A DNA stretch of 64,000 bases from Schmidtea nova (Eukaryota). Both the position numbers and the translations under genes were made by a program. Shown here one piece after another: positions 1,135-59,524 of this stretch (position 1 is the stretch's first letter; every line of letters begins with the position of its first letter). The stretch lies in contig CM097883.1 in the NCBI GenBank assembly GCA_044892505.1, forward strand, positions 119,412,001-119,476,000, written 5' to 3'. The notes under the pieces were generated by a model, which was given only the letters and a program-made list of their open reading frames with translations, did no database searches and was not told the origin of the DNA.

Positions 1135-1810
1135 GTTATTATGAGTTAGTTTTAGCGGTGTAATATGTGTTTGATGTTTATTAATAAAGAGAATATGTAG
1201 AGCCCAAAAGAGTCTCCCAAAACTTATTGTGGGGACGATTGGGGTGCTTGCTGAGTATTTGCTTGTGAATGAGTTTGAATAAAGAATATGTTTGGATAAA
1301 AAAAAATTAGATACCACAATTAACGATAACAAAATTATAACCAATTTTATAACCAATTTTATTAAAAATAACAGTTTTAAATAAGTTTACTCACAGATAT
1401 AAGTTCTTTCGTTTGATTTTGTAATTGATTTTGTCTTCTTTAAAAATTTTTTTTATAAATTGACTGAAAGGATTTAATTTCAAATTTGTAACGTTCCAAT
1501 TCTATCTGTAATTTTGAGCAATTTTTCTTCACGCAAAAAATAGGTCTTGTCTTCTTTATAAAGTTCTTTTATAAATTGACTGAAAGTATTTAATTTCAAA
1601 TTTGTAACGTTTCAATTCTATCTGTAATTTTGAGCAATTTTTCTTCCACACAAAAATAGGTTTGTTAATATTTCATTTTTATCGATTTTATTTATTTTGT
1701 GATTTGGCTTACTATAGTTATTTACTATAATAAGCCAAATTCAAATTCATAATTTGAATTTTAATAATTATAATTATTTCACTTAAAAATAAAAAATTAA
1801 AATTAACAAC

Positions 1811-3049
1811 TGTAGTGCCTCCGTCATATATATATGTTTATTTATATTTTAACTAATTTTATTATATATTTTAATTACATATACATATCTATATTAAATT
1901 AAAAATATCGACATTTTTCTAGTGTTGTTTAAAAAAGTAAAAGCTTACAGAAATTCAAATTACAATATATACGCACTTTTTTCAGAATGAACACAATTTT
2001 CTTCTTATTTCTAATCAGTGTTATCACAACAGTTTCTGCAGCAATAATGATATTCGATGCAAATGTGTTCGTAATTTACCAAACAATATGGAATTGAAAT
2101 ATTGCCGCTGTCCATTCATGATGCCTGATTTGCATGAAAAATTATTTAAACAGAAGAAACAATTTTATTGGATAATAAATATTTCGATTGGATTTTATTT
2201 CTTTTTTATTTTGTATCGAATTAAGGGAAACACAGAATGGGGTACCAAAACACAGAGCCCCACAATTGGTGTCAGAAGTCACAGTACCAGCGTCTACAGC
2301 ACAAACATCTACAGCTCTAGCATCTACAGCAATAACACCAACATCTACAGCACCAGCATCTACATCAGTAACACCAACATCACCAACATCTACAGCACCA
2401 GCATCAACAATACCAACGTCTACAGCACCAGCATTTACAGCACCAACACCAGCATCACCAATATATACAGCACTAGCATTTACAGCACCAATATCTACAG
2501 CACTAGCATCTACAGCACCAACGTCTACAGCATTAGCAGTTACAACACCAACAGTATCAGCATCTAGAGCACCAAAATCTACAGTACCAAGATCTACAAC
2601 ACCAAAATCTACAACACCAAAATCTACAGCACCAGCATCTACCGCAATAACACAAACAGCACCAACATCTACAGCACTAGCATTTACAGCATCAGCATCT
2701 ACAGCAATAATATCAATAGCACCAACATCTACAGTATCAATATCTACAATACCAGTATCTACAGCACCAACATCTACAGTACCAGCATCCAGCACCAATA
2801 GTACCCCATACGCTCCGCGTACTTGGGTGGGGGCCATTGTAGTGCCTCCGATAATAAATATTTATTATAATATTTAATTATTTATTAAAATAAAATAACT
2901 TGTTTTAATAACAAGTTATTTTGGAGAAGCAGTTTTTCAAAATGCAACATAATGAAGAGTTTTTCAAAATGCAACAAAATGAAGAAGAATTTGTATTTTA
3001 ATAAATATGTATTTTACCTAATTATTGTAGCTTTTTCCATATCGCTACA
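1811..3049 (+). mobile_element. Non-autonomous mini LTR-type element nested in the copy A LTR
   Basis: TGTAG...CTACA termini; 5-bp TSD ACAAC (1806-1810, 3050-3054); PBS at 2267-2279; G-rich PPT at 2825-2833 followed by a second TGTAGTGCCTCCG at 2838. Confidence 0.82.
1987..2877 (+). pseudogene. Secreted mucin-like gene: signal peptide, 4-Cys segment and Pro/Thr/Ser/Ala repeats; one frameshift and a GA-AG intron-like gap
   Basis: MNTIFFLFLISVITTVSA at 1987; DIRCKC..YCRC in a shifted frame; removing 2171-2225 joins it in phase to the STAPA repeats (15-nt unit, ~2280-2800). Confidence 0.6.
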
Positions 3050-3151
3050 ACAACAAAAGGGGGGGGGGACATAACCACCCAAAATCGTGAACATTAAAAA
3101 GGGTATGGCGATGGTTTGGTCTAATAATTATTATAATTTCAGTACATTAAA

Positions 3152-3742
3152 ATGAAAAGAAATACGTCAACGTCGATGAAAGGCAACTGTCGTCGGAACA
3201 GTAAATTTATCGGCTCAGGGTCGCAGCCAACACCATCGGTTCCCGACATTATTCAAACCAAGACCAACAGATATGTCCGTCACTGGAAGAGAGAATTTCC
3301 CAACTCCGAGCCTAATTATGCCGCGGAACAATTTGAAATTAACGTCAGGTGGGTAGAAGACCCATTCTGGCCACTCCGATACTCAGCTTCGCGAATTCAC
3401 ACACGGCAATGGTTTATCGAATTCTTCGATCGAGAGGGCTTACCTAGGTGGATATTGCTATTCGTACCAATTCCAGGCTGGGTTCTGCAACAAGTGGGCT
3501 ACGTGCTATTGGACAGACCACGTGATATTGTTACGGGAGAAATGAGGCCCTATCAAAATCTGTCGTGGGATTTCAAGGAGGAGTGGAAAGATGAAGTACC
3601 ATGGGCTGCGGCAGTCCAATTCCGAGAAGTGTTCATCTATAATGACAAGCTATGCTGCAAACCCAACCCAGAGTTTTATTTCCAACTGGAATCCGGAAAG
3701 AGGACAGTCCCTGTAATCAGGACTGGATCGACATGGAAGTGA
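3152..3742 (+). CDS. Unknown Trp/aromatic-rich protein, 196 aa (ORF-A of the unclassified repeat)
   Basis: Intact intronless ATG-stop ORF, GC-richer than its flanks. Weak degenerate homologue at 55893-56114 (-). Confidence 0.55.
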   Translation: MKRNTSTSMKGNCRRNSKFIGSGSQPTPSVPDIIQTKTNRYVRHWKREFPNSEPNYAAEQFEINVRWVEDPFWPLRYSASRIHTRQWFIEFFDREGLPRWILLFVPIPGWVLQQVGYVLLDRPRDIVTGEMRPYQNLSWDFKEEWKDEVPWAAAVQFREVFIYNDKLCCKPNPEFYFQLESGKRTVPVIRTGSTWK

Positions 3743-17635: not shown

Positions 17636-18537
17636 ATGGCTTCAAGAAGAAAATCTCATTTACCAAATCGAATTGATATTCAAGTCGATGATGATGACAA
17701 TATCATTGACGTTGGAGATTCAAGAACTACAACCAGTTCGTTAGACAAAATATTAAATTCAATTAAAAATGCCATTGAAGAATTGAATTGTTATGAGGAT
17801 AAACTTCGTTTAATTTCTGATATCCACCATGAACTCGATGAAATTAAAAATCAATATTCAGTAATTTTTTTAGTATTAATTTTATATTTATTTTTAAATT
17901 GTTTTCCTAAGAATTGCGAGGAATTACCATTGAACTTAATCACACCAAAAGAGGAAAAATCTACAAAATTTGAAAATAATGTGAGAACAAATAAAATATT
18001 AAAAAAACAAAATTGAAAATAATATACCATATTTAGATTCCACAGTTAGCTCCAGAAATGAACCGAAATCACGACTTTCAATTAAAGACAGCGGAAAATT
18101 TAATTTATGGAAACAATATTCTTAACACACTTTCTCCGTTAATATCAGCAAACTTCCCTTTCCAATGGAAATCCCAGCCCAGTCAAACAATTGCGAATGC
18201 ACTTTTAGCCCCGCAAACACAAAACATGGTATCAAATATCAACAATCCCGATTACAGATCGAACATCCTATTGAATTCAATTCCATCCAATAACCCATTC
18301 ATTAATGGATCAATGCAATCATCCACAGGTTTTCCATCGATAATCCCAACGAATCAAATGTCAGTTCTGAGTCACAATATTCTCAACAATTTCATATCAA
18401 GTATGAACAGCTCAATGATGCCTCTAGCTGGCAACTCACCGATCACCCCAAGCTACAACTCTTCATCTGTCTCATCAGATTACGCAGATTTCAATGAGCG
18501 GAAAAATAATCCCGCCGAAATCAATCATAACAACAAC

Positions 18538-18568
<31 letters not shown>

Positions 18569-21332
18569 CCGAGGTAGGCTTATTGAATGCACGCATCATT
18601 CGCGCAAACCGGCCAGGAGAAATAGAAAATCGAACGAATCATGTTAAACGACCAATGAATGCATTTATGGTTTGGTCACGCGAAGAACGCAGCAAAATAT
18701 TGAAAGTAATTTCTTTTGAATTTTTTACTAAGCTTTTTTTAAAAATATGAGTAGAAATTTTAATTATCATTAATAATTTTATAATTAAGGCTTGTCCCGA
18801 TATGCACAACAGTAATATATCGAAGTTGCTTGGTAAAAAATGGAAAGAAATGTCAGCTATCGATAAGCGACCGTATTATGAAGAACAATCGCGATTGAGT
18901 CGGCAACACATGGAGGAGCATCCTGATTATCGATACAAACCAAGACCAAAGCGAACTTGTATAATTAATGGACGAAAATTACGAATTTCCGAATATAAAG
19001 ACCTGATTAAATTAAGAAAATCGAAAATGCCAGATTTGGATATGTCAGTCGATATGGAAAATAGCTGGGAAGGTAATATTTTTATTTTATTATTTTTATT
19101 TCTATTATTTATTATATTATTATTATTTTTATTTATTAATTTAATTTCTATTATTATTATTTTAATTTTAATTATTATTTATTTTTTTTTATTTCTATTA
19201 TTTATTATATTATTATAATTTTAATTTCTATTATTATTATTTTTTATTTAATTTTAATTATTTTTTTTATTATTTTAATTTTAATTTCTGTTATTATTTT
19301 CTGTTTAATTTTTCTTTTTATTTCTATTATTATTTGTATTTTTATTTAATTTCTATTATTATTATTTTTTTTATTAATTTAATTTCTATTATTATTATTT
19401 TAATTTTAATTATTATTTATTTTTTTATTATTTTAATTTTTATTTCTATTATTATTATTTTTTATTTAATTTTAATTATTTTTTTTATTATTTTAATTTT
19501 AATTTCTGTTATTATTTTCTGTTTAATTTTTCTTTTTATTTCTATTATTATTTATTTATTATTTTCTTTTTATTTATTATATTATTTGTATTTCTATTAT
19601 TATTTGTATTTTTATTTAATTTCTATTATTATTATTTTTTATTTAATTTTAATTCCTATGATTATTTTTATTTTTATTTTAAAATTATATAGTTTAATTT
19701 TACTATTTTAAGCAAAAGCAAAAAATAAATCCCTTTAGCATGGGGAAATTCTTTAAATTTGACTTTTACTAAATTACTTTTTCAAAATCACTTGAAATGC
19801 TGTAATTTTGAATTTTATAAGATTTCCAATGCATACTTAATACTGTTTTTATACCACGTTTCATAAAAATACTTGTTAAAGATGGGTAATGTATCTATGG
19901 GAAAATAAGAGATCAGCAAAAGAAATATATGGAAATTGTATATTTATATAAAAATGTATTATAAAATAAATTTGGGTTTGAAAAGAAAAATTAATATTAC
20001 ACCATAATAAGGCTTTATTCGTGATGATTTCTGATAAAAATTTGGTGCAATATCATTAAAAAATATCTTGATCATCTTTTTGTGTTGTTTTACGAACGAA
20101 TTCAATTATTAATAATTCGTGTAAAAAGAAAATTTAATTAAGATTTTAAAATTTATTAAATTAGATTTAATAAAAAAATTATTATTATTATAAAATATTA
20201 AATCTACTTTATTTTAGATCAAATTCCTCTTAGGGAAATTTAAAACTGATATTAGAAAAAATAATAAGATCGTTTTAATTTTTAAGACAATAACTCAAAA
20301 AAAATTCCTAAACACGAATTATCGACGATTCCTTTTTAAAGTGTTTATTTTTCAAACATTTAAAAAAGAATCTGTCCAATCTGGTGTTTGAAAATAATTT
20401 TTTTTGATCTATTGTCTTTAAAATGAAAATCTATGAAATTTAAAAAAAATGAGAGCAAAGGTGACGAAAATCAAAGAATTAAGAGGAATATTTTTTCTGT
20501 AAATCCTATTTATTTATGCTTTTTTAGGTTATTTCAATAATTTTAAGTTTCAATTGTTTTTTATATATTCACTTATCCTGTGAATATTTGAGATTAGAAT
20601 TCATGTAAAAACAAGCCAAGTATTCGGCTATTAATTATTCAAGTAACCTAAAAATTTATCAACTGATATAATTAAATTTAGTAGTAATATAGGTTTCGTT
20701 TTTTTCTAGTATTTTAGAAATTTTTGATAATTAAAATCAAAAGTAAGTAAAATTTAATTCAAATGTCTTAAATATGACTCTTAGGAGCAAAATTGTTTTT
20801 TATACTTCTAGTTTATTAAAATTCACCAAAATTTATTCTAAAACGTATTTAATTTTATTATTNNNNNNNNNNNNNNNNNNNNNNNNNNNNNNNNNNNNNN
20901 NNNNNNNNNNNNNNNNNNNNNNNNNNNNNNNNNNNNNNNNNNNNNNNNNNNNNNNNNNNNNNNNNNNNNNNNNNNNNNNNNNNNNNNNNNNNNNNNNNNN
21001 NNNNNNNNNNNNNNNNNNNNNNNNNNNNNNNNNNNNNNNNNNNNNNNNNNNNNNNNNNNNNNNNNNNNNNNNNNNNAAAAGTAATATCGACAGGGAAGAG
21101 TGAAACAAGTTCTCTTAGTGATGCCTACACAGAATTTAATCAAGAAAACCCAATAATTGAAAATCAGGTCACCTACTCCTCACCGTTGTCTACCAATCAC
21201 TTTCCAGAATCATTCAATACAGAAAATAAAACCAACACAATCAATTACGATCATTCTGCACAGAAATCTGATTTACCTGCTAAAATTGATTTTACTGCCT
21301 TGTCAGACAATTCATTCCCTATCAAGTGCTAA
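17636..21332 (+). CDS. SoxD: SoxD-group HMG-box transcription factor (Sox5/6/13, Sox102F, egl-13-like), ~494 aa; exons 17636-17860, 17912-17980, 18037-18705, 18790-19072, 21094-21332
   Basis: [22 protein letters not shown]|[15 protein letters not shown]...[22 protein letters not shown] (the post-HMG tail is SoxD-specific); N-terminal MASRRKS, coiled coil, PLNL motif; GT-AG introns with consistent phases. The last acceptor lies next to a gap and is less certain. Confidence 0.93.
18527..18565 (+). repeat. (AAC/AAT)n encoding a poly-Asn tract just upstream of the HMG box
   Basis: [14 protein letters not shown] in exon 3. Confidence 0.9.
19075..19710. repeat. Very T/A-rich low-complexity tandem repeat in SoxD intron 4
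   Basis: Recurrent TTAATTTCTATTATTATT units and a repeated ~70-nt block (~19268 and ~19490); almost no G. Confidence 0.9.
20863..21076. other. Assembly gap
   Basis: Run of N. Confidence 1.
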
Positions 21333-22073: not shown

Positions 22074-24556
22074 TAGAGTATAGAAAATCTCGATGTTTTG
22101 AGGCTCGAGCTCGATTATTTTTCGAGCTTTAGAGTTTAAAATATAATGGTGCATACGTACTAAGAGGAATAATCAAATTAAAATTTTAATTTAGACATCA
22201 AATCATTTAAATTTATTTTATCAAAATTTATTTAGACATTCTTATTAATAAAATAGTACTTCAAGAAAACTAGAGCGTGCAATGATTCATCTGATAGCTT
22301 TGACCGAATCTTGGTACTGAAATTATTAGCCACTGAAAATGCTCTCTGAATCAATAGATGTTGGTTTGATTGTATTGATCGCATCAAGTAATCGCTTCAG
22401 ATTTTCTGTCAATTCACCATTACTTTTTGATAAAGTAAATTCTTGGTGTAACTTTTTGTATCGATCAATCCGAACCGGTTTTGTGATTGGAGCTTCAAAT
22501 AGACCTCTAAGTTCATCTTCAAGTGAAGCTTCAACAATTCTAGTTAATTGTATTTCGTCACCAGTTTCTTCAACTTCATTGGTTGAAATGTTTAGCGACG
22601 GAAGAAGACGATTCATCAAAGCGGTCGCTATTTGAATAGAAGCTTTTTATGGTATTAAGATCATTTAGTGAATTCATTAGATCCATACTGTCACGGTTAA
22701 TTCTACTATTAATGTAAAAATCAATGTTTTCTAGACTTATTTCAGTTTCTTGTTCCGTTAATATCAGTCGCAGAAAATTAATAGTAATATAAGCGGTACT
22801 TAAAGTAGCTTTTTTAACTCATAGCATTAAGTGTTGCTTCAACTGGTTTCAATGCCAAGACTATCGATTTCAATACTTCTAAGTTGAAATCATTCAAAAG
22901 ATGTTCAGACTCTGATTCAATAAGTGATTCTTTAGTAACATCGTATAATTTGATAAAAGGTTTCAAGTATTTTTAGCATTGAATTCCATCTAGTTTTACA
23001 GTCAAGGGTGAGTTGTTGCTCTCTTTGAAATTTTTCTGTACATTTAAATTTGAATAAATCTGATCGCATGGCCGAAATTTAAAAAAAAATTAGAACGTGT
23101 CTCACAAGATTGATGTTTTCCTTGAACGATTCACTCATTATCTCAATTTCGTCAATTTTGCCACTCATATCATTGATTTTATCAAAATTTTCTATTTCTT
23201 GTAAATCTTCGTCAGCAGTCCCTTGTAAATCTTCGTCTTCAGTTCATTGAGTCATAATACACTTTGTATATAATGTTTTTGTAACAGCCAAATATAAGCC
23301 ATGGTCAATACAAATTTGATAAATTGCAAATGATTCTTTTCCAAACTTGATCATAACACTTGCTCCATTACCAGTGGAAGCAACAATATCGTGCTTGATT
23401 AAAAGCCCAAAGGAATTGAGATGTTTCTCAACGAGTTCATTCCTTTTTTGGCATCACAACTACCAAATATTCTGACAAGTTCAAGATTGATGCATTTTAG
23501 TGAGACAGTATGGAGGTTTATGTTGAGAAATCGACGATTACCCATACTTGTCCATTCATCCAATGTAATTGAAATTTTTTTTGATTTTGAAAGATCTTTT
23601 TTAATATCATTCAAGACTTGTTGTTTCACTGTTTCCATAAACCTATGAACTAGAGCCATCACAGACCTTCCATTAGCTGGAAGCATCATACCCCTTGAAG
23701 CCAAAGATTGGTGAATAAATTCTGAATGAGTGATTTTTCGAATTGACAACCCATCACTGCAGCCATCTTTGATACAATCTCTTCAAGAGATGTTTTAAAC
23801 AAGAAACTATCCAAAGTTTTCATTCTATTCGGTGACATCTCTAACTCAACATTATCAACATCAACGTGATGAATAGTGATTAGATGACGACGCATTGTTG
23901 AAGTATTTCCTTGCTGAATAGAATTATTTTGGTTGCAATCATTATAATTGCATCTTGCGATATTTTGGTCTTGCTTTGTGAAATAACTCCAAGCTGATGA
24001 TTTTTTATTCTTTGATATGGTCGCTAGGGTTAGAAGTTAAACGTTTATTATTAGTAATATAATAAAATACAAAATAAAGAAGAACAGGTACTCACAATAA
24101 TAAAAATAACTGGTTAACTTTCTCCATTTATTATAATAAATAATGCAATTGAATGAGATTAACAGAACATTAAAATATGGAAAACAGGTAAATATTTACT
24201 ACTTATAGGTATCTGTCTATATCTGTCGTTCTGGCTCATTCCGCGCAACCAATACATATATCATAACTGTACATTAAAGCACTTTTCTGCACACATAAAC
24301 GTTTGGATACAGCGTTAAATACAAAAATGTTGAACCTAAATCAGAATTCTACACAAATTTAACTAAATTTAAAATATATACAAATTACTTTGAAAAAATA
24401 TACACACATCTTGATTCTAACGATAAAAGGAACTCTTATTTAAATATAGACTTATAATAATGTATCGATACTCAAAGCTCATCGACCTTTTAAATTGAGC
24501 ATCGAGCTCCAAAAATGGTTTAAAATCATCGAGCCTCGCGCTGGTGTCAAACCTTA
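22074..24556 (-). mobile_element. Full-length but degenerate hAT transposon with a BED-finger transposase
   Basis: 8-bp TSD ATCACATC (22066-22073, 24557-24564); subterminal GAGGCTCGA; SAWSYF..ARC...C..TSTMRRHL..H BED finger; ITLDEWTS; C-terminal NTIKPTSIDSESIFS. Confidence 0.92.
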
Positions 24557-24992: not shown

Positions 24993-25540
24993 CTATTTTA
25001 ATCGTTTTGAATTTTTTGTTGCAATCGAAAAATTATATGATTGGGATTTTTCATAATGTAGGAATGCTAAAAGCAAATAAGATTTTAGTAATAGAAATTG
25101 ATCTCCAATTGACAAGTTGGTCTTTGGCAACCGGAAATCCTGACCGATGATAACAAGAGTTGAAATGAGCAAGCTCCATGGCATTCCGTATTGATTGATT
25201 TCTGGTGCTGGCGAATAATCCTTTAATCGAGATTGATTGTGATCCAATGTATTGATTTGTAGATTTTTTGAGTTAGTCATTTTAGATTTGTCTGGATAGT
25301 ATATTAATATTGATCCAGTTGTTGACAAGCATCTTCCAGTTTGTAAGACTTCTTTACGCATTCCAGCAGCGAAACATTTCTGCAATCTACGGAACTGGCA
25401 ATTGTTTCTTCTTTGAATATCGACTACACAATCTCCACTAGAGTAGAACTGATAATTGTTGACATTTGATGAAAACGAGTCGCTGTGAATGTCTTGAGTG
25501 AATGGGTATATCGAATCATTGTTAACAGCTTGTATTTTTT
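24993..25540 (-). pseudogene. Nuclear hormone receptor fragment: second Zn finger, T-box, hinge and start of LBD
   Basis: GDCVVDIQRRNNCQFRRLQKCFAAGMRKEVLQ (one ligand Cys replaced by Arg); LBD signature F...LSIGDQFLLL; no first finger seen. Confidence 0.8.
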
Positions 25541-25709
25541 TTGATCAGCGTGAAAAAGTGAAAATATGTAAATATTAAAACAACATCTAATTTAATCCAT
25601 TTAATAATTAATTAATTTATAAAATTGAAAATTTAATCTAAGGCACTACACATAACTATTATTATTATATTTGGTAATTCAAAGCATTTTAATTAATTGT
25701 TTTTTATTA

Positions 25710-28960: not shown

Positions 28961-29689
28961 CATATATAACATTTACTCACAAATACAAAAAAACAATTAA
29001 ACTGCTGGATGTAATATTATTTTATTTGAGTAATTGTTATATTTTGTTTTAATTAAATAAAATTTATTTCGAAACTATTTATTTATATAAGATCATCAAG
29101 TTAAGTTTCTGGAAGCCTCAATATTTAGCTGATAGCTTCGTTCGTGTAATTTTTGAATTACTGTAAAAAGTTCCATAAATTTGTTTTCTTCTTTCACTCG
29201 ATTATCTTTGTTAGGCAAAAACTAAAATGAAAGTGTAAATTTGTTTAAATGACGTGATAACCCTAAAATCTAAACACGCACAAGAAGTGTATTTTAAATC
29301 TCCCATAGACACTCAATAAATCCCCTAAAAATAAAAAATTTAATTAAGGAATATCATATAATGATATTTCTAATATAAAGTTTAAAATCAAACCTTTAGA
29401 TTAAGATTGGTAATTTAAAAATATAAATAAAATAAAACTGAAAATTAGCGAAATTATAAAATTATTAGTAATATTAATAGAATATTTTGTTAGAATTAAA
29501 ATCAAAAAGAAAACATTAAAAACTTAATATTAAATAGAAATGAAGTCATAAGAGTTGATTTAATCAATCACGCCAAGGTCATAAAAATTGTAATAAATAT
29601 TTACCAACACCAAAAATTCAGTTATGAATTTTTTGCTAAATCGCCATCTTAATTTTTAAGTAAGTTATTAACGGTGTTGAGGTTCTCCT

Positions 29690-30661
29690 AAAGTGAAAAC
29701 ATCAATGGTCAATCTTCAAGTCAAGATGGAAATCAAACATTTCGCCCTCAAGTCTCACAACAGCCAGCAAGAATGAATAATTATTCTCAATTAAGCTCAT
29801 CTAACTCTCATAATGCAAGTAGTCAAATGGAAGTCGTTAGGCGAATAGCAGCTACAATGCAACCACTATCATTTCCGATGCATTTAATCAATCAACAAAA
29901 TCAACCGTCAATTTCCATAATTTCAACTCCGTCGCAAGTAAATCGAAACTCTCAAATAGATTGTGCTCAAATGGTAAGAACGCCAACAAGTTCACAAGTC
30001 TCAGCCACTAACATTTGACAGGCTTTGTATATAATAAAACAGAATTTAATCTCACAAAGTGATAAATCCAAACAAGCTAACAATCATATACCAGATGCCT
30101 GCTGGTCTACAGTTTCCAATCTGTCTTTAATCATTTACAACTCAACGAATATTAGTCTATCATCAATAACAATAAATTCATCTCCAGTCGTTTCACAGAA
30201 TCAAAATGCTACAATTCTTCCAATGAGTAACGTCGACGTTCAGACATTAGATGCGATAAATCGATCGATTTCTCAGCAGAATCCAAAACCAATAAATTCA
30301 ATGCCAGTAAATTCCAATCTTTCTCTCATTCAAGCGGATTCCAAAGTCGCTCAACAGTTGAGTAATGGCTTTCAAAAGAAGTCTCCTCGCACACCGTCGG
30401 GTGTTAATTCACAGGGATACATGTCAATTGGTCAAACATAGGAAGCAACACAAATCAACATGAAAAATAGAAATAACATCAAATCTATCGTAATTTTTTC
30501 ACCAGCTCCATCGAAAATAAACTTAAACACCAACAACGATATTGATAATTCTCTATTAGAAGCTCCATTAAATTCAAAAGTCACAGGAACTCCAATATTA
30601 ACAAAATTTCTTTTCTTTTCGGAACAGAAAATCAGCCCCCCCATATCACCGCGGAGTTACA
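29690..30661 (+). other. Ser/Gln/Asn-rich coding-like fragments occupying the expected 5' LTR position of copy B
   Basis: ORFs 29773-30018, 30025-30441 and 30460-30693; ends in ...GAGTTACA just before the element leader; no recognisable domain. Confidence 0.35.
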
Positions 30662-30792
30662 ATGTTAGCATATTTTATTGTTATATTAAATAATATTATT
30701 ATATATTATTATTATTTATATCATTATTATTAAAATTAACGGGGCCGCCCAATCTTCCTAATTTTATCCTACGTCGCCGATCCTATAGGTCC

Positions 30793-35365: not shown

Positions 35366-35629
35366 ACCTCTCAAAATACCATATGATTATACACTAAAAT
35401 TCTATATAGAGTATCTACATTATTGTATTTCAAAATGCGCTCCGCATCTTCCGACGGGGGCTGATGTAGTGGTCTAGAAGAATTGATATTAAAGCTTGTC
35501 TTAAAATATCAATGGAACATGGTCTGCTTCAAACTTCCACTCTATTCAGTGCTATTAGATTTTCAACAATTCATTTTAATGACGAATTAACTCCAAAAAC
35601 AATCAAATTGCTAATAATTGAAGCTATAG

Positions 35630-36400
35630 AATGGTCTTGAAATCATGTCTCAGAGTCCTAGCGTTACGCAGTAATGGATTACACAATGAAGCTGTTAAGC
35701 TTGCCTTATCAATTTGTCGATATCTTATTGGTCAACGTCCTCAAATCACTACACAATCTCGGCAAACCAAACCTATAGAGCCGACTACGCCGGCTAATCA
35801 GTCCTGTAGTTGTTGTCTGGATAATTTATCATCGATAGACTCTAAGTCAACTGCAATATCATCATTCAATTGCCTCCTTCAAAAATACTCCAACTGTACT
35901 GATATTACTGAAAATAGTAACGATTCTGAATGACAAACATGTGAGTTTTCTACCCCAGAATCCTTTATAAAATCGTCAGAAATTTCAACTACTGTTTTAA
36001 TGTCTTCCTCCACCGATTCATTAGTGTCTTCGCCACTTCCAACGAGTTATCCAAACATTAAAAATGTCACAATAAACTCAAATAAATCATTTTTTACCTC
36101 TACATGTTTTATGCAGTCGTGCTCGCCACTGTGGATGTCCTCGTCTAAACCTCCTTTACTTTCAACTAATGTGGAATATAGTCTCAATCCATCTGCATCG
36201 AAAATTTGCTCTCAAAGCGGTCCGAAATCCAATTTAATAGTAGAAACAACATTAGGACTACCAAACCGGCTTCCACAGTAACATGCGAAACAACATTCTC
36301 AATATTGACGCGTTTAATGTCGCCCTACTGAAAATGCAAGGCTGTGCAAAGAAAACTAGACCTGGCGTTATTAGCTTATGAGAAGGAAGAATCGAAGCTC
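35630..36400 (+). pseudogene. ZSWIM4/5/6-like fragment immediately after the PPT and TGTAGTG of copy B
   Basis: SCLRVLALRSNGLHNEAVKLALSICRYL versus recalled ZSWIM6 [28 protein letters not shown]; weaker LIVETTLGL match downstream. Confidence 0.55.
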
Positions 36401-36769: not shown

Positions 36770-39379
36770 CCACTAAATGATCTAAACAAAAATAAAAGCA
36801 ACGTTAAAATCAACTGGAACAAACAACTAGAAAGTGTTTTTGAAAAAGCAAAAACAAATCTATCCAACACAAGTCTATTGAACTACCCCGACCCAAACTT
36901 AACATATATCCTCAACACTGATTGTTCTGGAAATGCAATGGGAGATACAATATACCAAGATAAACATAACGAAAAAAGACCCATTGCATTTTTCTCAAAA
37001 AAACTCAAAGCTCATCAAATGCGATATTCCACTTTTGACAAGGAACTGCTGGCGGTACACGACACAATAAAACACTTTCAATACCTCTTAGAAGGGAAAG
37101 AATTTGAAGTTTATACAGACCACAAACCCCTAGTAAACGCAATCAACATGAAATTGCCATTACCAAGACAAATACGGCAATTAAATTACATCTCACAATT
37201 TAATTGCGAAATCAAATAAATAGCAGGCGCAGCAAATATCTGTGCAGACATACTTTCACGAATCGAAACACAAACAAATGCAATCAGTATAATTCCGATA
37301 GTGAACCAAGAAGCTATGAAAAACAAACAAGAAATTACAATAAAAAAACTTCCCAAAATTGAACTCAATAGTGTTTAGAGAGATTGACGGAATCTGGTAC
37401 GACATATCCAATGAAAACATCAAAAGATTAATAGTACCCGAGAACCACAGAAACGAACTTATTCAACAGTTCCACAACATATACCACCCAGGAACAAAAG
37501 CCACATACGAACTCATACACACAAAAGTCGTATGGTCAAACATGAGAAAAGACATCAAAGAATTTGTCAACTCATGTTTAAATTGTCAGAAAAACAAAAT
37601 AACAAAAAGAATCAAAACACCAAAATTAAATTCCCAACATCCGAACCTTTCGAAACAGTCAACGTAGATCTAGTAGTACCACTTCCACCCAATAACAACT
37701 ACAAATACCAACTAACAATGATTGATCGGAAAACAAACTGGTTTGAAACAATACCAATCAAAGAAATCACCACTAAAACCGTCTGCGAAAACATAGAACT
37801 GAATTGGTTCGCAAGATACGGATGCCAAAAAACAATCATCAGCGACCAAGGCAGACAATTTGAATCCGATTTATTCAAAGGACTATGCACAAAATATAAA
37901 ATAAAAAAGTCAGAACAACATCATATAACCAACAGTCAAATGGCAAAGTAGAAAGACTTCACAGATCCTTAAAACAAGCGATACGGACTAAAGCTAATGA
38001 CAGAAACTGGTTAGAAAAACTGCCAGAAATACTAATCGGACAATGAAATAACCCATCTTCGATAAATAATAAAAGCCTTAGCCAACTAACTTTCGGACAT
38101 TCAACAAACCTCCCAAACTTAATAAAAAATATCGAAAACATTGGCAAAACATTCGAAGTCAAAGCACAAACAAAGAAAAACGAAATAAAAGAAGCTTTCG
38201 TAAATAGAAATGACAAACACAAACATTCAAAAACAAATCTCATCGTCGAGTCGGTATTAATAAAAAAACATTCACCAGCGGTTTCGAATCAAAATATGAA
38301 GGTCCCTACAAATTAATCAACCTGAATAAAAATGTGGGCACACTACTAATAAACAACAGGGAAATCAGAATCAATATTCGCAGATTAAAACTCTATCAAT
38401 ATAACAAACAAACAACACAAAACCAAATTAATAAAAAACCCCAACAACTTCCTAACAGAAATACAACAATTATACCAATACAAAACAAACGATACAGCGA
38501 CTGCCTCAAATTAAAACACCAACACACACAAGCAAAACACATGCACAAACAATGTTGGTTGTACAGTTTTTATTTTTTTTGTTAAATCGTTGTAAAACAA
38601 AAAACAAAGACAAAACAAAACAAATAAAATGGTTTTAGGTTAACTGTTAATGTTAAAATGTAAATTTTTAAAATTTTATTTGCATGTTAACCTCAGGTTC
38701 TAAAGGGGAAGTTGTGTAATGTTCACGATTTTGTGTGGTTATGCCCCTCCCCTTCGCTGTTAATTTTTATTTTTTATTTGTAATTAAATGTATAATTATT
38801 AAATTTCAAATTATGAATTTGAATAATTATAGTAAGCCAAATCACAAAATAAAAAAAATTGATTTTAAAATAATTTTATTATTTGTTCAAGAAACCAAGG
38901 AATATTAAAGAATATTAAATAACCCAAGAAAATATTAAAGAACAAGAGAATTTTAAAGAATATTAAAGAATATCAAAGAATCAAATATTAAAAAACCGAA
39001 GAATATTAAAGAATATTAAAAAACCCAAGAAAATATTAAAGAACCGAAGAATATTAAAGAATATTAAAGAACCAAATATTAAAGAACCAAAGAATATTAA
39101 AGAATATTAAAGAACCAAAGAACCAAATTAATCCGAACATTATTCCAAAACATTCCAATACCGTGAGTAGTCTTTGATTCGTTTTTCTTATTAAATAAAA
39201 TTTATAAACTAGTTAGTTTTGTTCGTTTGTTATCGTACACACACGCACCACATATATATCAAACACCCCAACTGTCCCAACAATAAGTTTTGGGAGACTC
39301 TTTTGGGCCCTTCAGTAATTTCCAGTACACAACAATATACCCATTGCATAACACAAACTAATAAAATACTACTATAATA
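36770..39379 (+). mobile_element. pol: Ty3/gypsy family 1, copy C: 5'-truncated (RNaseH-IN) plus 3' LTR 38713-39379
   Basis: LNTDCSG, YSTFDKELL, IISDQGRQF, closely parallel to copy D pol; PPT AAAGGGGAA at 38702-38710; LTR TG...TATAATA. Confidence 0.92.
38890..39125. repeat. AAGAATATTA-based minisatellite inside the copy C LTR
   Basis: Repeated AAAGAATATT and AAAGAACC units. Confidence 0.9.
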
Positions 39380-43458: not shown

Positions 43459-44279
43459 ATTTCATGTTTATTTTACGTTATTATTCGTTCAAGAGTTTGT
43501 AAGCGCCGTCATTACTATGGATGGTGCCTTCGCGGTCACCTGGCCCCCCCAGTTTTATTGTGGTTGATGATATTTATTTTTATCATTGTTATCATCTTAA
43601 TTATTTTTATTTAAAATTTGAATTTGGCTTACTATAGCAATTTGCTATAGTAAGCCAAATCACAAATAAAAGAATCAATAAATTTTATATAATTTCTCGT
43701 AATGGCTTTTACTAATTATTTATGATTACAATCAAACTAGATAGAAGAATAAACACTAATACTGAAAATTAAAAATCCCAATTACTATCAAAAAGAAAAT
43801 AGAAAAAGAGAATTCTACTATTTTACGATTTTTCAATTTTACAAGCTAAATTGTAAAGAAGCAAAGATTGCTGAAAGAAAATCCAAGCCAATTTTATTTA
43901 TACTGAAGATTTATCAAAGTTTATATAGTTTTCTAACTTACAATCTCCCTCGTCGACGGCTGCTAAATTGTAAAGAAGCTAAAAAAGAAAAACTTTTCAA
44001 GTAACCTTTCGTGGTTTTGCTATTTATCTGTTTATTAATAAATTTTGAGTAATTTAATAATTGTTCTGATTAATTTATTTGATTGCAACTTATATACTTT
44101 TTATATTTAATTGTTATTGTATTATCCTTGTAATCGCACTACATAGCACACACCCCGAGTGTCGGCACATAGTTAACGTCTGACTCTCTCGGGATCTACA
44201 ACTTTCTTACAACTCTTCTACACATTCACTCGTACAACAAATTAAAACTCAAATTGTAACAGCTCAAACAACTATAATA
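43459..44279 (+). repeat. 5' LTR of copy D (visible part)
   Basis: Matches 48920-49857 apart from a few substitutions and one 117-bp unit. Confidence 0.95.
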
Positions 44280-44281
44280 AC

Positions 44282-44293
44282 TGGTGTCAGAAG
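44282..44293 (+). promoter_or_regulatory. PBS TGGTGTCAGAAG (tRNA-Leu type)
   Basis: 2 nt after the LTR end. Confidence 0.88.
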
Positions 44294-44484
44294 GAAAAAA
44301 ACAGAACACTTAACTCAATTTTTTTTTTCAATCACTACGCCTTTTTAGAATAGCTATAGATAGAGCTATAAAGGATAGTTGACTCTGTTAGCCGAACACA
44401 GTAGGCTATATCCTTCAGTTAATCTCATTTTTTTTGCACATTTAAAAAAATAAAGAAACAAATCAACACTACACATAAAGACAA

Positions 44485-45543
44485 ATGGCATCGAACCAAC
44501 AAAATCTAACAAACAATCCCCAAACACACAACAACGAAACCATACCCAATCAACAAGAGAATACCAGCTATTTTTACACCCCTGAAAACCACCACACCAT
44601 AAATTCGATTATAAACCCCAAGGCAAACATTCCAAACTACTTTACAGATGAGAACGGCACACCCCAAAAATGGCTAGAGTTCTCAAAACTAACATTGACA
44701 CTGTCAGGAATCAAATCGACGAAAAGCTTATGCTCCCACATAATAGCCGCTCTTCCTAGCAATATTCTAAATGAAATTGCAGATCGAATCGACGAAATAG
44801 CGAATAGCGACGACCCATTTAACCTACTATACACAACCTTAGTAAATAGAAATAAGGTGAACAGGAGGGAGGTTTTGGAGTCTTGTCTAAAAGATATACA
44901 GCTTGGAAATGACAAACCAAGCGAATTTCTGCGAAATTTGAAAAGCAAACTGGAATTTTTGCAACCCAAAATCACAAGTGCGGGTCAAAATGATTTCGTG
45001 AAAGACCTATTCATGAGGGCAATGCCGCAAGAAATAAGACGCATCTTAGTGGCAAACGACTGCACAGACCTCGACAAAATAGCCGATATCGCGGACAAAA
45101 TTAATGACGAAATATTCCCAACAGTGTGTAGAACATACCGAAAACAACACCCGTGGGAAAACAAACAAGAAAACCGTCAAGAACGAGATAACCCAAACAA
45201 TGATACCAATCTACTGCTGAACTCGTTAATAAAAAAAGTTGACGAGGTCCTAACAGAAAACAAGAACCTCAGAAATGACTTACAATAGGCACAAGCGAGA
45301 GAAACCAAAAGAAACCAAATCAATCAAAACAACCGGTCAGAACAAAACCCTTACTTTAACCGTTACCAAAATAACCATAACAACCCAACAGAGCAAAAAC
45401 CAAATTTTAACCGATATAATAACCCAAACAACAGCTACATACAAAATGAAAATTGGTGTTATTTTCACAATAGATTTGGAGACAAGGCGTACAAGTGCAA
45501 CGCACCCTGCACTTTCAACAATAAAAAGCCGGAAAACATATAA
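44485..45543 (+). pseudogene. gag: gag, 352 codons with one in-frame TAG at 45286; single zinc knuckle WCYFHNRFGDKAYKCNAPC
   Basis: Frame continues past the TAG to TAA 45541; copy A has GAG at the same codon. Confidence 0.9.
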
Positions 45544-48500
45544 AGTCACCAAGGATCGCACCGACCATTGGTGACAGCCAAACATTCACGGTGCACAGCA
45601 ACGGTATTAACTTTCTCGTTGATACCGGTTCAATAATTTCCTTATTGCCGAACTACCTCTACAAAAACACAAAAACAGAAACCACAAGTTTATGTGCAGC
45701 AAACGGCAGCCCTATCAAAACATTAGGAAAACAAAACATCGACATTTCCGTCAATAATATAAAATACAAGTGGCATTTCACCATCGCAGAAGTGAAACAA
45801 GCCATATTAGGAGCAGATTTCCTCGCAAGATACAACTTACTAGTCGATTGTAAAAATGGGAAAATTATATCAAACAATTCAAATAACTCAACCACCAAAA
45901 GTAACCAATCAACAAAACAAACTAACTGCGACATTGGAGTGATAACAGCTCTACACGGCGAAATAAAAACGAATGAGCAGAAACTAAAATCAGAAAAAAA
46001 GGACGAACATATTCCTAATGAAATCATGAAACTGATACAAACAATGCCAAACATAACAAATAAACTACAAACAATTAGCGAAACTAAATGCATAACTGAA
46101 CACGCAATAATAAGCAATGGAAATCCTGTGCATGCAAAAGTCAGACAGTTGGACAAAAATAAACTCGAAATAACAAAGAAAATATTTGACGAATTATTAG
46201 AAAACCAAATCGTCAAACATTCTAATTCAAACTGGTCCTCAGCCCTCATGCTTAAAGAAAAAGCAAATGGTGAATGGCGTGCCTGTGGAGACTACAGAGC
46301 ACTGAACAGCATCACGACACCTGACAAATATCCAATTCCTATCATAAATGATATAATTAACCGATTCAACAAACCCAAACTCTTCAGCAAAATCGATTTG
46401 GAAAAAGCCTACCATCAAATACCCGTCAGAGCGGAAGACATAAAGAAAACAGCGATCATCACACCCTTAGGCCTCTATGAATACAACAGAATGCCTTTTG
46501 GTTTAAAAAACGCTGCGGCAACGTTTCAACGTTTTATGGACCAAATCCTGCGAAACCAACGAAATACAGTCGCTTACCTAGACGACATACTTATTGCGTC
46601 CACAACCAAATCGGAACACATCGAAAACATAAGAAATGTGTTGGAAATACTCAACAAACACGAACTAAAAATTAATACAAAAAAATGCCAATTTTTAAAA
46701 ACTGAAATACAATTCTTGGGTCACTTGTTGAATGAATCGGGAACAAGACCACTAGAAGACAAGATAAAAGCAATAAAAAACTATCCATTACCCAAAACAA
46801 CAAAAGAACTAAGACGATTCCTGGGGATGATCAACTTTTATCACAAATACATACCAAAATGTAGCGAAATGTTAGCCCCTCTCAACGAATTAAACAAAAT
46901 AAAGAGAAATATTAAAATAAATTGGAACGAAAATCTAATAATAGCATTTGAACAAGCAAAGGAAAATCTGAAAAACGCAAGCATCCTAAGCTACCCTAAT
47001 CAGGAATTACCATACATAGTCAACACAGATTGTTCAGGACTAGCAATGGGAGGTACCATATTCCAAGAGGAAAACAATGAAAAACGACCCATAGCATTCT
47101 TTTCAAAAAAATTGAAAACGCATCAAATGAGATACTCTACCTTCGACAGGGAGTTATTAGCGTTACACGACACGATCAAGCACTTTCAATACCTATTGGA
47201 AGGTAAAGAATTCGAGGTTTATACCGATCATAAACCCCTAATAAATGCAATGAATATGAGAAATCCTTCACCGAGACAAATACGACAATTGAATTATATT
47301 TCACAATTCAATTGTAAAATTAATTACATAGCAGGATCAGCTAATATAAGTGCAGACGCATTATCAAGAATCGAGACTGATATCAACGCACTAAACATAC
47401 CACCAATCATAGAGTTAGAAAATCTAAAAACTATACAAAAACAAAACATAACAGAGTCTCCGAGGATGAACTCGCTCAAATTGGAAGAAATAGACGGAAT
47501 CTGGTACGACACTTCAAACGACAATAATAAAAGAATCATTGTACCGCCTAAATTACGCGAACAGTACCTACAGAAATATCACAACCTTTACCACCCAGGA
47601 AACAAAGCCACATATGAACTTTTGCATACCAAAGTAATCTGGCCTTATATGAGAAGGGACGTAAAAACCTTCGTTAGAAACTGCCCACAGTGCCAAAAGA
47701 ACAAAATAACGAAAAAACAATTTAAAACAACGGTGGTACAATTTCCAAGTTCGGAACCTTTCGAAACAATACACCTCGACATAGTCGGACCTCTACCACC
47801 CAATAACAAACACAAGTATTTGTTAACAATAATAGATCGCAAAACAAACTGGTTTGAAGCCATACCCATAAAGGAAATATCCGCAGCAAAGATTTGCAAC
47901 AAATTAGAACTTAATTGGTTCGCACGGTATGGTTGCCCAAAAACAATAATCAGCGATCAAGGTAGACAATTTGAATCCGACATTTTTAAAGGACTGTGTA
48001 ATAAATATAACATTAAGAAAAACAGAACAACAGCGTATAACCCCCAATCAAACGGAAAAGTGGAAAGATTACACCGATCTATAAAACAAGCAATCAGAAC
48101 AAAAACGAACAATAACGATAACTGGTTGGGAAAATTACCAGAAATTTTGATAGGATTGCGCAACAACCCTTCAAGTTCAAACAACAAAAGTCCTAGCCAA
48201 TTGGTATTTGGACACAACACAAACCTGCCAAACTTAAAAGACGAAACAGAAAACAAGGTTGAGGCAAACTACGAATTCAACGAACCACAAATCACCAAAC
48301 TAAAAAACACCCTGAAAAACAAAAACAGTCAACAAACACAAAACCAAACCAGACTAATAATAGACAAAGTCTTAATAAAGAAACCTTTCACAAGTGGTTT
48401 CGAAACAAAATACGAAGGTCCATACAAATTACTAAATTTGTACAAAAACGTCGGCACAATCGTAAAAGACAACAAGTCAATTAAAATAAACATACGCCGA

Positions 48501-48686
48501 TTAAAACCATTTTATGAAAACAAACTAACACCATCCAACATTGACCACAACCAAAACCCTCCAGACAAAACCCCAACAAAACAAAAACACATCTCATTCA
48601 ACTCCAAAAACTCAATAAGACTATTCGACAAGGGCACAGTGAGCACACCCCTATACAAAAAACGATATAGCGAATGCCTCAAATAA
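45525..48686 (+). CDS. pol: pol polyprotein (PR-RT-RNaseH-IN), intact, in the -1 frame relative to gag
   Basis: FLVDTG; YLDDIL; TDCSG; HHCC and DDE integrase; YEGPY. Open from 45525, overlapping the gag end. Confidence 0.97.
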   Translation, partial: KAGKHIKSPRIAPTIGDSQTFTVHSNGINFLVDTGSIISLLPNYLYKNTKTETTSLCAANGSPIKTLGKQNIDISVNNIKYKWHFTIAEVKQAILGADFLARYNLLVDCKNGKIISNNSNNSTTKSNQSTKQTNCDIGVITALHGEIKTNEQKLKSEKKDEHIPNEIMKLIQTMPNITNKLQTISETKCITEHAIISNGNPVHAKVRQLDKNKLEITKKIFDELLENQIVKHSNSNWSSALMLKEKANGEWRACGDYRALNSITTPDKYPIPIINDIINRFNKPKLFSKIDLEKAYHQIPVRAEDIKKTAIITPLGLYEYNRMPFGLKNAAATFQRFMDQILRNQRNTVAYLDDILIASTTKSEHIENIRNVLEILNKHELKINTKKCQFLKTEIQFLGHLLNESGTRPLEDKIKAIKNYPLPKTTKELRRFLGMINFYHKYIPKCSEMLAPLNELNKIKRNIKINWNENLIIAFEQAKENLKNASILSYPNQELPYIVNTDCSGLAMGGTIFQEENNEKRPIAFFSKKLKTHQMRYSTFDRELLALHDTIKHFQYLLEGKEFEVYTDHKPLINAMNMRNPSPRQIRQLNYISQFNCKINYIAGSANISADALSRIETDINALNIPPIIELENLKTIQKQNITESPRMNSLKLEEIDGIWYDTSNDNNKRIIVPPKLREQYLQKYHNLYHPGNKATYELLHTKVIWPYMRRDVKTFVRNCPQCQKNKITKKQFKTTVVQFPSSEPFETIHLDIVGPLPPNNKHKYLLTIIDRKTNWFEAIPIKEISAAKICNKLELNWFARYGCPKTIISDQGRQFESDIFKGLCNKYNIKKNRTTAYNPQSNGKVERLHRSIKQAIRTKTNNNDNWLGKLPEILIGLRNNPSSSNNKSPSQLVFGHNTNLPNLKDETENKVEANYEFNEPQITKLKNTLKNKNSQQTQNQTRLIIDKVLIKKPFTSGFETKYEGPYKLLNLYKNVGTIVKDNKSIKINIRRLKPFYENKLTPSNIDHNQNPPDKTPTKQKHISFNSKNSIRLFDKGTVSTPLYKKRYSECLK

Positions 48687-48905
48687 AATACATAAACATA
48701 CACAAGCAAACACAGGCACAACATAGCTAAATGTACAGTTTTTAGTCTTTTGTAAATATGTAAATGTTATGGTTAAGACGTTATAAACAACAAAACAAAT
48801 ACAAAAACAAAACAAAATAAAACAAAACAACAAAAACAAGTTGTCAACATGGTTAATCTGTTAATTTTTATGTTCTTGTTAACCTCCGGTTTTAAAGGGG
48901 GAAGT

Positions 48906-49857
48906 TATGTGGATGTCTTATTTCATGTTTATTTCACGTTATTATTCGTTCAAGAGTTTGTAAGCGCCGTCATTACTATGGATGGTGCCTTCGCGGTCAC
49001 CTGGGCCCCCCAGTTTTATTGTGGTTGATGATATTTATTTTTATCATTGTTATCATCTTAATTATTTTTATTTAAAATTTGAATTTGGCTTACTATAGCA
49101 ATTTGCTATAGTAAGCCAAATCACAAATAAAAGAATCAATAAATTTTATATAATTTCTCGTAATGGCTTTTACTAATTATTTATGATTACAATCAAACTA
49201 GATAGAAGAATAAACACTAATACTGAAAATTAAAAATCCCAATTACTATCAAAAAGAAAATAGAAAAAGAGAATTCTACTATTTTACGATTTTTCAATTT
49301 TACAAGCTAAATTGTAAAGAAGCAAAGATTGCTGAAAGAAAATCCAAGCCAATTTTATTTATACAGAAGATTTATCAAAGTTTATACAGTTTTACAACTT
49401 ACAACCTCCCTGGTCAACGGCTGCTAAATTGTAAAGAAGCAAAGATTGCTGAAAGAAAATTCAAGCCAATTTTATTTATACTGAAGATTTATCAAAGTTT
49501 ATATAGTTTTCTAACTTACAATCTCCCTCGTCGACGGCTGCTAAATTGTAAAGAAGCTAAAAAAGAAAAACTTTTCAAGTAACCTTTCGTGGTTTTGCTA
49601 TTTATCTGTTTATTAATAAATTTTGAGTAATTTAATAATTGTTCTGATTAATTTATTTGATTGCAACTTATATACTTTTTATATTTAATTGCTATTGTAT
49701 TATCCTTGTAATCGCACTACATAGCACACACCCCGAGTGTCGGCACATAGTTAACGTCTGACTCTCTCGGGATCTACAACTTTCTTACAACTCTTCTACA
49801 CATTCACTCGTACAACAAATTAAAACTCAAATTGTAACAGCTCAAACAACTATAATA
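48906..49857 (+). repeat. 3' LTR of copy D, 952 bp, TAT...ATA termini
   Basis: Follows the PPT plus GT; identity with the 5' LTR ends at TATAATA. Confidence 0.93.
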
Positions 49858-58960: not shown

Positions 58961-59122
58961 AAACATCCAAAGATAATTTCCCAGCCTGCTGGCCGCTATT
59001 AAACACAACGATTTAGAAAAACTCAATGTCCAACTGTTGGGCGAATAATATACTCCCTAACGATACATGGTCGGACTAACGAGGGAAGAATCGAGGCAAA
59101 CAAGAATATGATGGTAAGAGTC
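58961..59122 (+). pseudogene. RPS5: 40S ribosomal protein S5 (uS7) fragment abutting the PBS
   Basis: KHPKIISQPAGRY*TQRFRKTQCPTVGRIIYSLTIHGRTN versus recalled [40 protein letters not shown]. Confidence 0.8.
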
Positions 59123-59132
59123 AATACCACAA

Positions 59133-59150
59133 TGGTGTCAGAAGTAGGAT
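59133..59150 (+). promoter_or_regulatory. PBS TGGTGTCAGAAGTAGGAT (17/18 match to the tRNA-Leu CAA 3' end)
   Basis: 1 nt after ...ACCACA; recalled tRNA complement TGGTGTCAGAAGTGGGAT. Confidence 0.9.
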
Positions 59151-59311
59151 GTGATCTATATTATATATTTATATTTAAAAAATCATATATTTATATTTTT
59201 TCACAAATACTAATCACCACATTTTCCCCCTCCCCAGTGCGTGTCATTTTACCTCCCCCGTTACTGAAAGAGCCTCATTATTTTCCTGTCCTCGCCGAGG
59301 CTACAGCGCAA

Positions 59312-59524
59312 ATGCGAGACTTCGCACGCAACCTATCCCACACATTTCCACTTTCTCTAACCTTGCACGATTTAGAACGCTTTATTTGCTCTATTTGGCA
59401 CTTGAAATTAAACACTTTCTATTTCTCACACATAGGTTTTAGCGTAGTGAACGATGGGGAACCATTAGCCAAGGTATTACCGCCGGGAGGAGTTGTATAC
59501 GTGACATTTAGATTACGTGGAGGC
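59312..59524 (+). CDS. Ubiquitin-like domain (71 aa, Met start, ends RLRGG) fused to Gag
   Basis: MRDFARNLSHTFPL...TLHDLERFI...FYFSHIG..VNDGEPL...VYVTFRLRGG followed directly by the Gag Met at 59525. Confidence 0.85.

Follow-up and report, generated by a model that had tools for sequence, protein, structure and literature searches.

A hybrid, decaying, non-autonomous Ty3/gypsy element in a planarian genome and the predicted LTR-coded leader of its family

Several described groups of LTR retrotransposons come close to the element analyzed here. TRIM elements that carry gene fragments, of which GmaRetroS15 is an example, measure 1172-1449 bp and are described as small, without enzymes and flanked by a 5-bp target-site duplication (TSD) (PMC4717578), and in yeast Ty1 the primer-binding site (PBS) lies inside the GAG open reading frame (PMC4974528). 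Template switching has been reported to bring foreign sequence into the LTR of BARE-2 and into the Veju TRIM (PMC13317346), and the Bs1 and Angela complexes are presented as template-switch chimeras, with outer LTRs that are highly similar within the complexes (PMC1950507). In planarians, the giant gypsy elements known as Burro contain captured domains, including a Ubi/SUMO-like one (PMC6431247).

The element of interest occupies positions 1811-3049 (1239 bp) of the window, by which we mean the whole 64,000-nucleotide stretch of DNA that was analyzed. An earlier note on this DNA had proposed a 1239-bp insert with TGTAG and CTACA ends and an ACAAC duplication, and the letters confirm this: TGTAG stands at the start, CTACA at the end and ACAAC on both flanks, a 5-mer match with a chance probability of ~0.0016. 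The flanks at 1739-1808 and 3061-3096 align with neighbouring parts of one paralogous LTR (38717-38824), which places the insert inside the 5' LTR of a minus-strand gypsy element of a family that we call family 1. This host element is 83% identical over 1-1159 to 44259-45449, has its PBS at 1122-1134 on the minus strand, and shows LTR matches at 38717-39314.

1806-1810, plus strand: left TSD, ACAAC, present in the letters and at an empty-site joint from 1810 in two of four runs
3050-3054, plus strand: right TSD, ACAAC, present in the letters and in contig X1#3
1137-3095 (limits approximate), minus strand: 5' LTR of the family-1 gypsy host element, with the insert ~45 bp from the outer end of the LTR

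Contigs were taken from four public runs of one study; the window itself may derive from one of these runs, which limits how independent they are of it. Together with the paralogous alignment, these contigs uphold the proposal that removal of the insert restores the host LTR, as empty-site joints were seen from 1810 to 3064 in two of the four runs and from 1771 to 3061 in three of them. At the right end, contig X1#3 spans 3021-3300 with no other letters and one gap, reaching only 29 nt inside the element, and contig X4#26 stops exactly at 3049. The single TSD shows that the insert integrated as one unit.

The surrounding DNA contains other features. A young family-1 gypsy element lies at 43459-49857, with LTRs that are 98-99.5% identical, a 1053-aa open pol frame and a gag stop near 45288. 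The host gene SoxP-5 (SoxD-like) spans 17636-21329; a short intron interrupts its HMG box, and its last intron contains an assembly gap. An HMG-box exon of this gene shares 99% identity with an unnamed protein and 95% with Dugesia japonica SoxP-5, and the corresponding values for the last exon are 94% and 88%. Fragments of BED zinc-finger/DUF659 (hAT-like) type and of a nuclear-receptor C4 zinc finger occur on the minus strand (23402-24036 and 24996-25544). A 201-aa open frame at 3137-3742 has no Pfam match and is covered by several contigs that are ~85% alike, so it is probably another repeat.

Within the insert, the internal parts listed in the earlier note are all present, namely the PBS at 2267, about 520 bp of 15-nt repeats (2281-2798) and a polypurine tract (PPT) laid out as in a second copy of the family, copy B.

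2267-2279, plus strand: PBS, 2 nt past the LTR end, reading LVSEV, in an ACA-AT-PBS layout as in the relative L002 described below
2805-2837, plus strand: conserved 3' cis module with the PPT, common to the whole of the family that we call family 2

The PBS, which we take to be a tRNA-Leu complement, is one of three exact matches within the window, and a search of the same 64 kb for a tRNA gene to compare with it found none. The PPT-TGTAGTG layout is found at 2830-2844 and again at 35457-35471, in copy B.

The earlier note passed over a second LTR position. The 13-mer TGTAGTGCCTCCG is present at 1811 and again at 2838, and because it opens both sites, two LTR positions can be defined in the insert.

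1811-2264, plus strand: left LTR, type L, 454 bp, with TGTAGTGCCTCCG, an AT-rich head and a coding tail, ending CCCCACA as the LTR of L003 does
2838-3049, plus strand: right LTR, type R, 212 bp, ending CGCTACA, with a 27-bp duplication at 2926-2985

The layout is thus LTR (L, 454 bp)-AT-PBS-repeat-PPT-LTR (R, 212 bp). Beyond the shared 13 bp the two LTRs are unrelated, since 154 of 500 simulated sequences score equally well, and as they have only these 13 bp in common, the insert is a hybrid copy. A 14-nt match between 2171-2184 and 2850-2863, considered as a relic of a shared LTR, is no better than chance. Unlike LTRs might instead reflect mis-assembly, or recombination or conversion after insertion, and not reverse transcription; the scaffold of the window contains gaps (727 N), and none of the contigs listed spans the whole insert. 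However, the same TSD borders the insert on both sides and an empty site is found, while recombination between independent insertions is described as leaving no TSD (PMC1950507). A shared stretch of 13 bp would also be too little for a k-mer switch or for easy conversion, and we regard such an origin as highly improbable.

A pattern search with the 3' module identified three metagenome loci, L001, L002 and L003, and returned 0 loci from viral contigs and 0 from bacterial or archaeal genomes. All three match 2805-2848 at 93-95% identity over 41-44 nt. L002 is an autonomous gypsy element in circularly permuted form, consisting of gag, a 1089-aa pol frame, a PPT, a 431-bp LTR (TGTAG..CTACA), AT and a PBS, and over RT-RNaseH-integrase its pol is 48-57% identical to copies B and C of the window versus 37-40% to family 1. 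L003 has a pol end and LTR head near-identical to those of L002, whereas the LTR tails are unrelated, that of L003 ending CCCCACA. L001 (1-800, minus strand) keeps gag, and an S/T/P-rich low-complexity interior replaces pol ahead of the same 3' module. Family 2 as seen in these copies is ~5 kb long, with the pol order RT-RNaseH-IN. Among the protein relatives P0123-P0130 considered below, P0124-P0130 are known from protein only.

35428-35471, plus strand: decayed family-2 copy B, with the same 3' module layout
58264-59824, plus strand: decayed family-2 copy C, an LTR whose uS7 fragment shares a frame with MVSEV, a ubiquitin-like domain and the start of Gag

Copy C has a 1-nt spacer, and MVSEV is read there in one frame with a uS7/RPS5 fragment (E 3.6e-5). 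The LTR of this copy holds ~700 nt of decayed coding-like DNA with the uS7/RPS5 fragment at its end, and the upstream part of this DNA (58748-58999) matches nothing in PDB below E 1. Copy B is bordered on both sides by decayed coding-like DNA (29400-30675 and 35465-36400), and its PBS looks deleted after TTACA-AT. The right flank of copy B could be read as ZSWIM-like, an assignment that searches of PDB (no match), of 97 candidates (none) and of Pfam (no match) did not confirm.

The relatives place the LVSEV reading of the insert in context. In L002, a single frame of at least 319 aa begins at an ATG ~157 nt inside the LTR and continues through LQLVSEA, then an AT-rich linker and a domain ending LRLQGG, into Gag; the AT-rich linker of 103 codons remains open in only 46 of 100000 shuffles. 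Since the autonomous Gag frame crosses the LTR end and the PBS as LQLVSE, LVSEV can be identified as the reading register of the family. The insert follows it, its LVSEV sitting in an open frame at 2179-2877, and the view in the earlier note that the cargo frame crosses the PBS in this way therefore holds and extends to the whole family. Among four LTRs, three (those of L002 and L003 and the right LTR of the insert) have an ATG frame that is open to the LTR end in the LVSE register, with p values of 0.007, 0.0002 and <0.0002 among them. The left LTR of the insert is the exception, with 28 codons (p=0.12), its longest frame (107 codons) being in another register, so that it would have an ATG frame in the LVSE register only if spliced. 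Both family-1 controls have a stop directly ahead of the PBS.

Proteins of the family suggest the same arrangement. A protein search yielded three relatives among 31 candidates. Two of them carry a leader and then SLQLVSE, and the third starts inside the ubiquitin-like domain. In one protein cluster, a leader and SLQLVSE are found in five of the six members, the remaining one beginning further downstream. The leaders of this cluster fall into three types that are identical at 16-17 of 45 residues (36-38%), compared with 445-451 of 453 (98-99.6%) for the bodies, which shows, at the level of these sequences, that the predicted LTR-coded leader evolves much more quickly than the remainder of the protein. 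Leader types within the cluster are still homologous (p<=0.01), so not all leader variation can be ascribed to capture; between subfamilies there is no clear homology. L002 is the case seen as DNA, and for the P-series proteins we infer from the peptide that the leader is LTR-coded. The protein P0127 reads LVSEVGY where relatives 98% identical to it read LVSEETN, as expected if the PBS is re-copied from the primer tRNA.

The domain that precedes Gag was folded from a six-row alignment (pLDDT 86), and the model shows a ubiquitin fold for a domain that ends in GG. The top structural matches listed are ubiquitin-family chains with TM ~0.7, the best E being 0.002 and none reaching 0.001. The corresponding domain of copy C matches ISG15 weakly (E 0.03), and a Pfam search with the ubiquitin-like domain was not informative. 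Matches of its Atlas features to aspartyl proteases (0.82-0.83) fall under the 0.9 bar and are uninformative.

We consider it probable that the insert is a non-autonomous member of a Ty3/gypsy family that initiates translation inside its 5' LTR. It keeps the TG..CA ends, the PBS, the 3' module and the PPT, and PTS repeats replace gag-pol in the same register. Judging from the fold and the GG end of the domain, host deubiquitinases would cut after GG and make Gag independent of the leader, and because Gag would thereby be freed, the LTR tail would be relieved of constraint except for its register. The tail (U5) might then drift, be swapped or take up pieces of host mRNA as long as the register stays open, with template switching exchanging tails or adding such pieces, and enzymes of the family would copy the mini-element in trans. 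The L..R hybrid could have formed if plus-strand strong-stop DNA from one subfamily paired, at the PBS that both have in common, with the minus strand of another, an intermolecular plus-strand transfer at the PBS of the kind known from retroviral reverse transcription.

The cargo itself can be divided into the following parts.

1987-2043, plus strand: ATG and hydrophobic signal-like peptide; the ATG is 176 nt into the left LTR and the frame breaks near 2043
2046-2170, plus strand: Cys-rich stretch CKC..CRC, with no homolog detectable in the searches made
2171-2225, plus strand: 55-nt AT-rich stretch, either a GA-donor intron or a read-through hydrophobic segment
2281-2798, plus strand: 15-nt tandem repeat, unit ACAGCACCAACATCT, 34.7 copies with 69% matches, 80% S/T/P/A in the PBS register
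2952-3049, plus strand: right-LTR frame beginning at an ATG, with another ATG at 2979, without a stop up to the LTR end in the PBS register and with a hydrophobic end

The earlier note had read these parts as one signal peptide-Cys-mucin protein. The parts are there, but in the DNA as it stands a continuous reading is interrupted by the frame break near 2043 and needs a 55-nt GA..AG intron. An explanation along these lines is that the element serves as a vehicle for a single spliced gene under selection, encoding a secreted or surface O-glycoprotein and having working copies elsewhere. Several observations are consistent with it. The ATG at 1987 and LVSEV share one frame, and a 55-nt intron with an acceptor of host type would connect the Cys frame to LVSEV. 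The left-LTR peptide has a hydropathy of 2.93 (p=0.023 against random open frames), and both LTR types encode a hydrophobic signal-like stretch, although the left one is out of frame in the DNA of this copy. In addition, in the four runs a length variant at the break near 2043 makes up 100, 51, 63 and 2% of the depth, and as copies vary in length there, the break is not universal.

Other evidence makes this single-gene explanation unlikely. The putative intron at 2171-2225 is non-canonical (GA..AG), even though its acceptor AATTAAG is the same as that of the Sox intron in the window. It is covered as deeply as its neighbours, whereas splicing should cause an intron to be lost at reverse transcription. 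The joint 2170/2226 is not among the 15 listed of 50 contig joints from the four public runs, and the rows listed (40 of 321 substitutions and 12 of 51 indels) include no variant at the GA donor. The idea that an intact version exists elsewhere gains from copies that lack the break near 2043 and finds no counterpart at the donor among those rows. The left LTR, moreover, may have joined this interior only in this hybrid. Reading 2172-2222 as a transmembrane helix was rejected, as its hydropathy is within chance (p=0.42).

The cargo also has no detectable homolog. A link from DIRCKC to TMEM9 had been suggested, and it was abandoned: no Pfam family was found at E<=0.05 or E<=1, and a search of 1.84 billion representatives gave no credible hit. 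The motif is particular to this copy, as nearly all of the contig depth has a different codon for its I (rows 2052 and 2053). Two matches of the cargo to representative proteins, repeat proteins of 688 and 1132 aa, involve short stretches only and are spurious. An ESM Atlas search with the cargo gave no usable match, a result that shows neither absence nor novelty, and a Pfam search of the frames of the insert found no RT, integrase or Gag match.

The composition of the repeat in the PBS register (T 27%, A 20%, S 19%, P 14%) is that of a PTS-rich mucin domain. Its codons have A in ~79% of third positions and C in ~79% of second positions, so stops are hard to reach, and a repeat of the (NCA)n-like kind can hardly fail to be open in this frame. 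The odds of the repeat matching the PBS register by chance are 1 in 3. Of the 19 high-share differences listed within the repeat, 4 are synonymous and 15 non-synonymous, a count confounded by cross-mapping between repeat units, and the repeat shows no sign of purifying selection, which also speaks against a selected glycoprotein gene. The codon composition, together with an opposite strand that is open for 239 aa, is what would be predicted if the interior were a non-coding minisatellite with open frames arising from composition and the element an ordinary decayed TRIM-like repeat. Such a reading would also accommodate the different S/T/P-rich interior of L001 ahead of the same 3' module, and the many unlike interiors that precede 2805-2807 (see below). 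We nevertheless judge it improbable, as it leaves both the right-LTR ATG frame (p=0.007) and the family-wide register unexplained, although for the interior taken by itself it may hold. For the right LTR, the 53 open codons have p=0.005 and the hydropathy p=0.053, and the frame ends ..SISL, which resembles the SLQ of P0124-P0130.

If natural copies with type-R LTRs at both ends exist, leader, LVSEV and PTS repeat would be readable in them without an intron. Under translation from inside the LTR, natural copies with an unbroken leader could yield a product with a signal peptide and PTS repeats, and a secreted mucin-like protein is thus a plausible candidate product for the family, as far as can be judged from reading frames. 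This insert is a broken, decaying copy.

Contig depth provides a view of how widespread the parts of the insert are. Relative to flank contigs without other letters (depths of 9.8, 38.8, 17.8 and 14), depth is 62-1280x for the coding part of the left LTR, 65-240x for the repeat, 24-518x for the right-LTR tail, 279-5874x for the right-LTR head and ~2400-5000x for the PPT bin, values that are rough and do not equal copy number, since overlapping contigs, the 80% likeness threshold and AT bias inflate or skew them. All parts are clearly multicopy, which fits the mobile vehicle proposed in the earlier note. Loose contig ends ahead of 2805-2807 agree at only 54-63%, which indicates that the interiors ahead of the shared 3' module are many and varied. 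Depth peaks at the module. Past ~2941, where LTR tails diverge, it drops 7- to 12-fold.

Taken together, the insert is a hybrid, decaying, non-autonomous Ty3/gypsy (TRIM-like) element. Its 5-bp TSD (ACAAC, with an empty site), within the 4-6 bp of TRIMs, its PBS after the 5' repeat and its PPT before the 3' repeat are those of a TRIM, and at 1239 bp, without RT, integrase or Gag, it exceeds the usual <1000 bp while lying within the cargo-bearing range given in PMC4717578. It lacks two similar terminal direct repeats, having 13 bp in common between its ends, and other copies may possess them. Of the proposed assignment to a TRIM-like derivative of family 2, the family part stands, given the shared 3' module (93-95% over 41-44 nt), LTR start and PBS layout and an L002 pol that is closer to copies B and C; strict TRIM membership fails for this copy because its LTRs do not match. 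The suggestion that the cargo could matter to a parasite falls away, since the host is a dugesiid planarian and these animals are free-living.

The interest of this insert lies mainly in the family architecture that it exposes, more than in this particular copy. LTRs are usually taken as non-coding and as identical at birth, and both LTR finders and insertion dating depend on this. If the interpretation is correct, a family with coding, fast-changing LTR tails, host fragments and unlike LTRs would be missed or misdated, and it would offer exon shuffling in animals a route that has drawn little notice. A broader proposal, which we offer tentatively and would not at present expect to hold in full, is that in this gypsy lineage the LTR tail acts as an exchangeable coding cassette: a ubiquitin-like domain that the host cleaves would insulate it from Gag, and host mRNAs would partly refill it. 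Abundant non-autonomous derivatives would then mix leaders and interiors via the shared PBS to form a combinatorial source of new secreted proteins with a signal peptide and a mucin-like part. Planarians are tractable through RNAi, long-read assemblies and piRNA data, so the register rule, cleavage at the ubiquitin-like domain and the mucin product are directly testable.

A literature search returned no account of a Gag leader that is hypervariable, coded in the LTR and accompanied by a ubiquitin-like spacer; most subscription papers are outside its scope, and repeat libraries or Repbase may list the family. Among known systems, TRIMs resemble the insert in small size, absence of enzymes and a 5-bp TSD, but they have terminal direct repeats where the LTRs of the insert share 13 bp, and the cargo of plant TRIMs is interior and intronless, whereas the insert has a coding leader in the LTR that runs across the PBS. 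Ty1 GAG starts within the LTR, in an element that is copia-type and Met-primed, and neither a hypervariable leader nor a ubiquitin-like spacer is known to us from Ty1. Ty1 and family 2 both have the PBS in the gag frame, while family 2 has the gypsy order RT-RNaseH-IN. In pestivirus polyproteins with ubiquitin insertions and in ubiquitin-ribosomal protein fusions, a moiety ending in GG is a processing signal cleaved by the host; the comparable cleavage in family 2 is suggested by fold and GG end only. The complexes in PMC1950507 are described as having highly similar outer LTRs, in contrast to the unrelated outer LTRs of the insert, and the LTR swaps of BARE-2, Veju, Bs1 and Angela are not described in those accounts as preserving a reading frame into Gag, unlike the swaps proposed for family 2. 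Burro elements, from the same host group as the insert, are presented as >30 kb long with an N-terminal Gag and extra domains inside the polyprotein (PMC6431247), whereas family 2 is ~5 kb long, with its ubiquitin-like domain before Gag and its variable part in the LTR.
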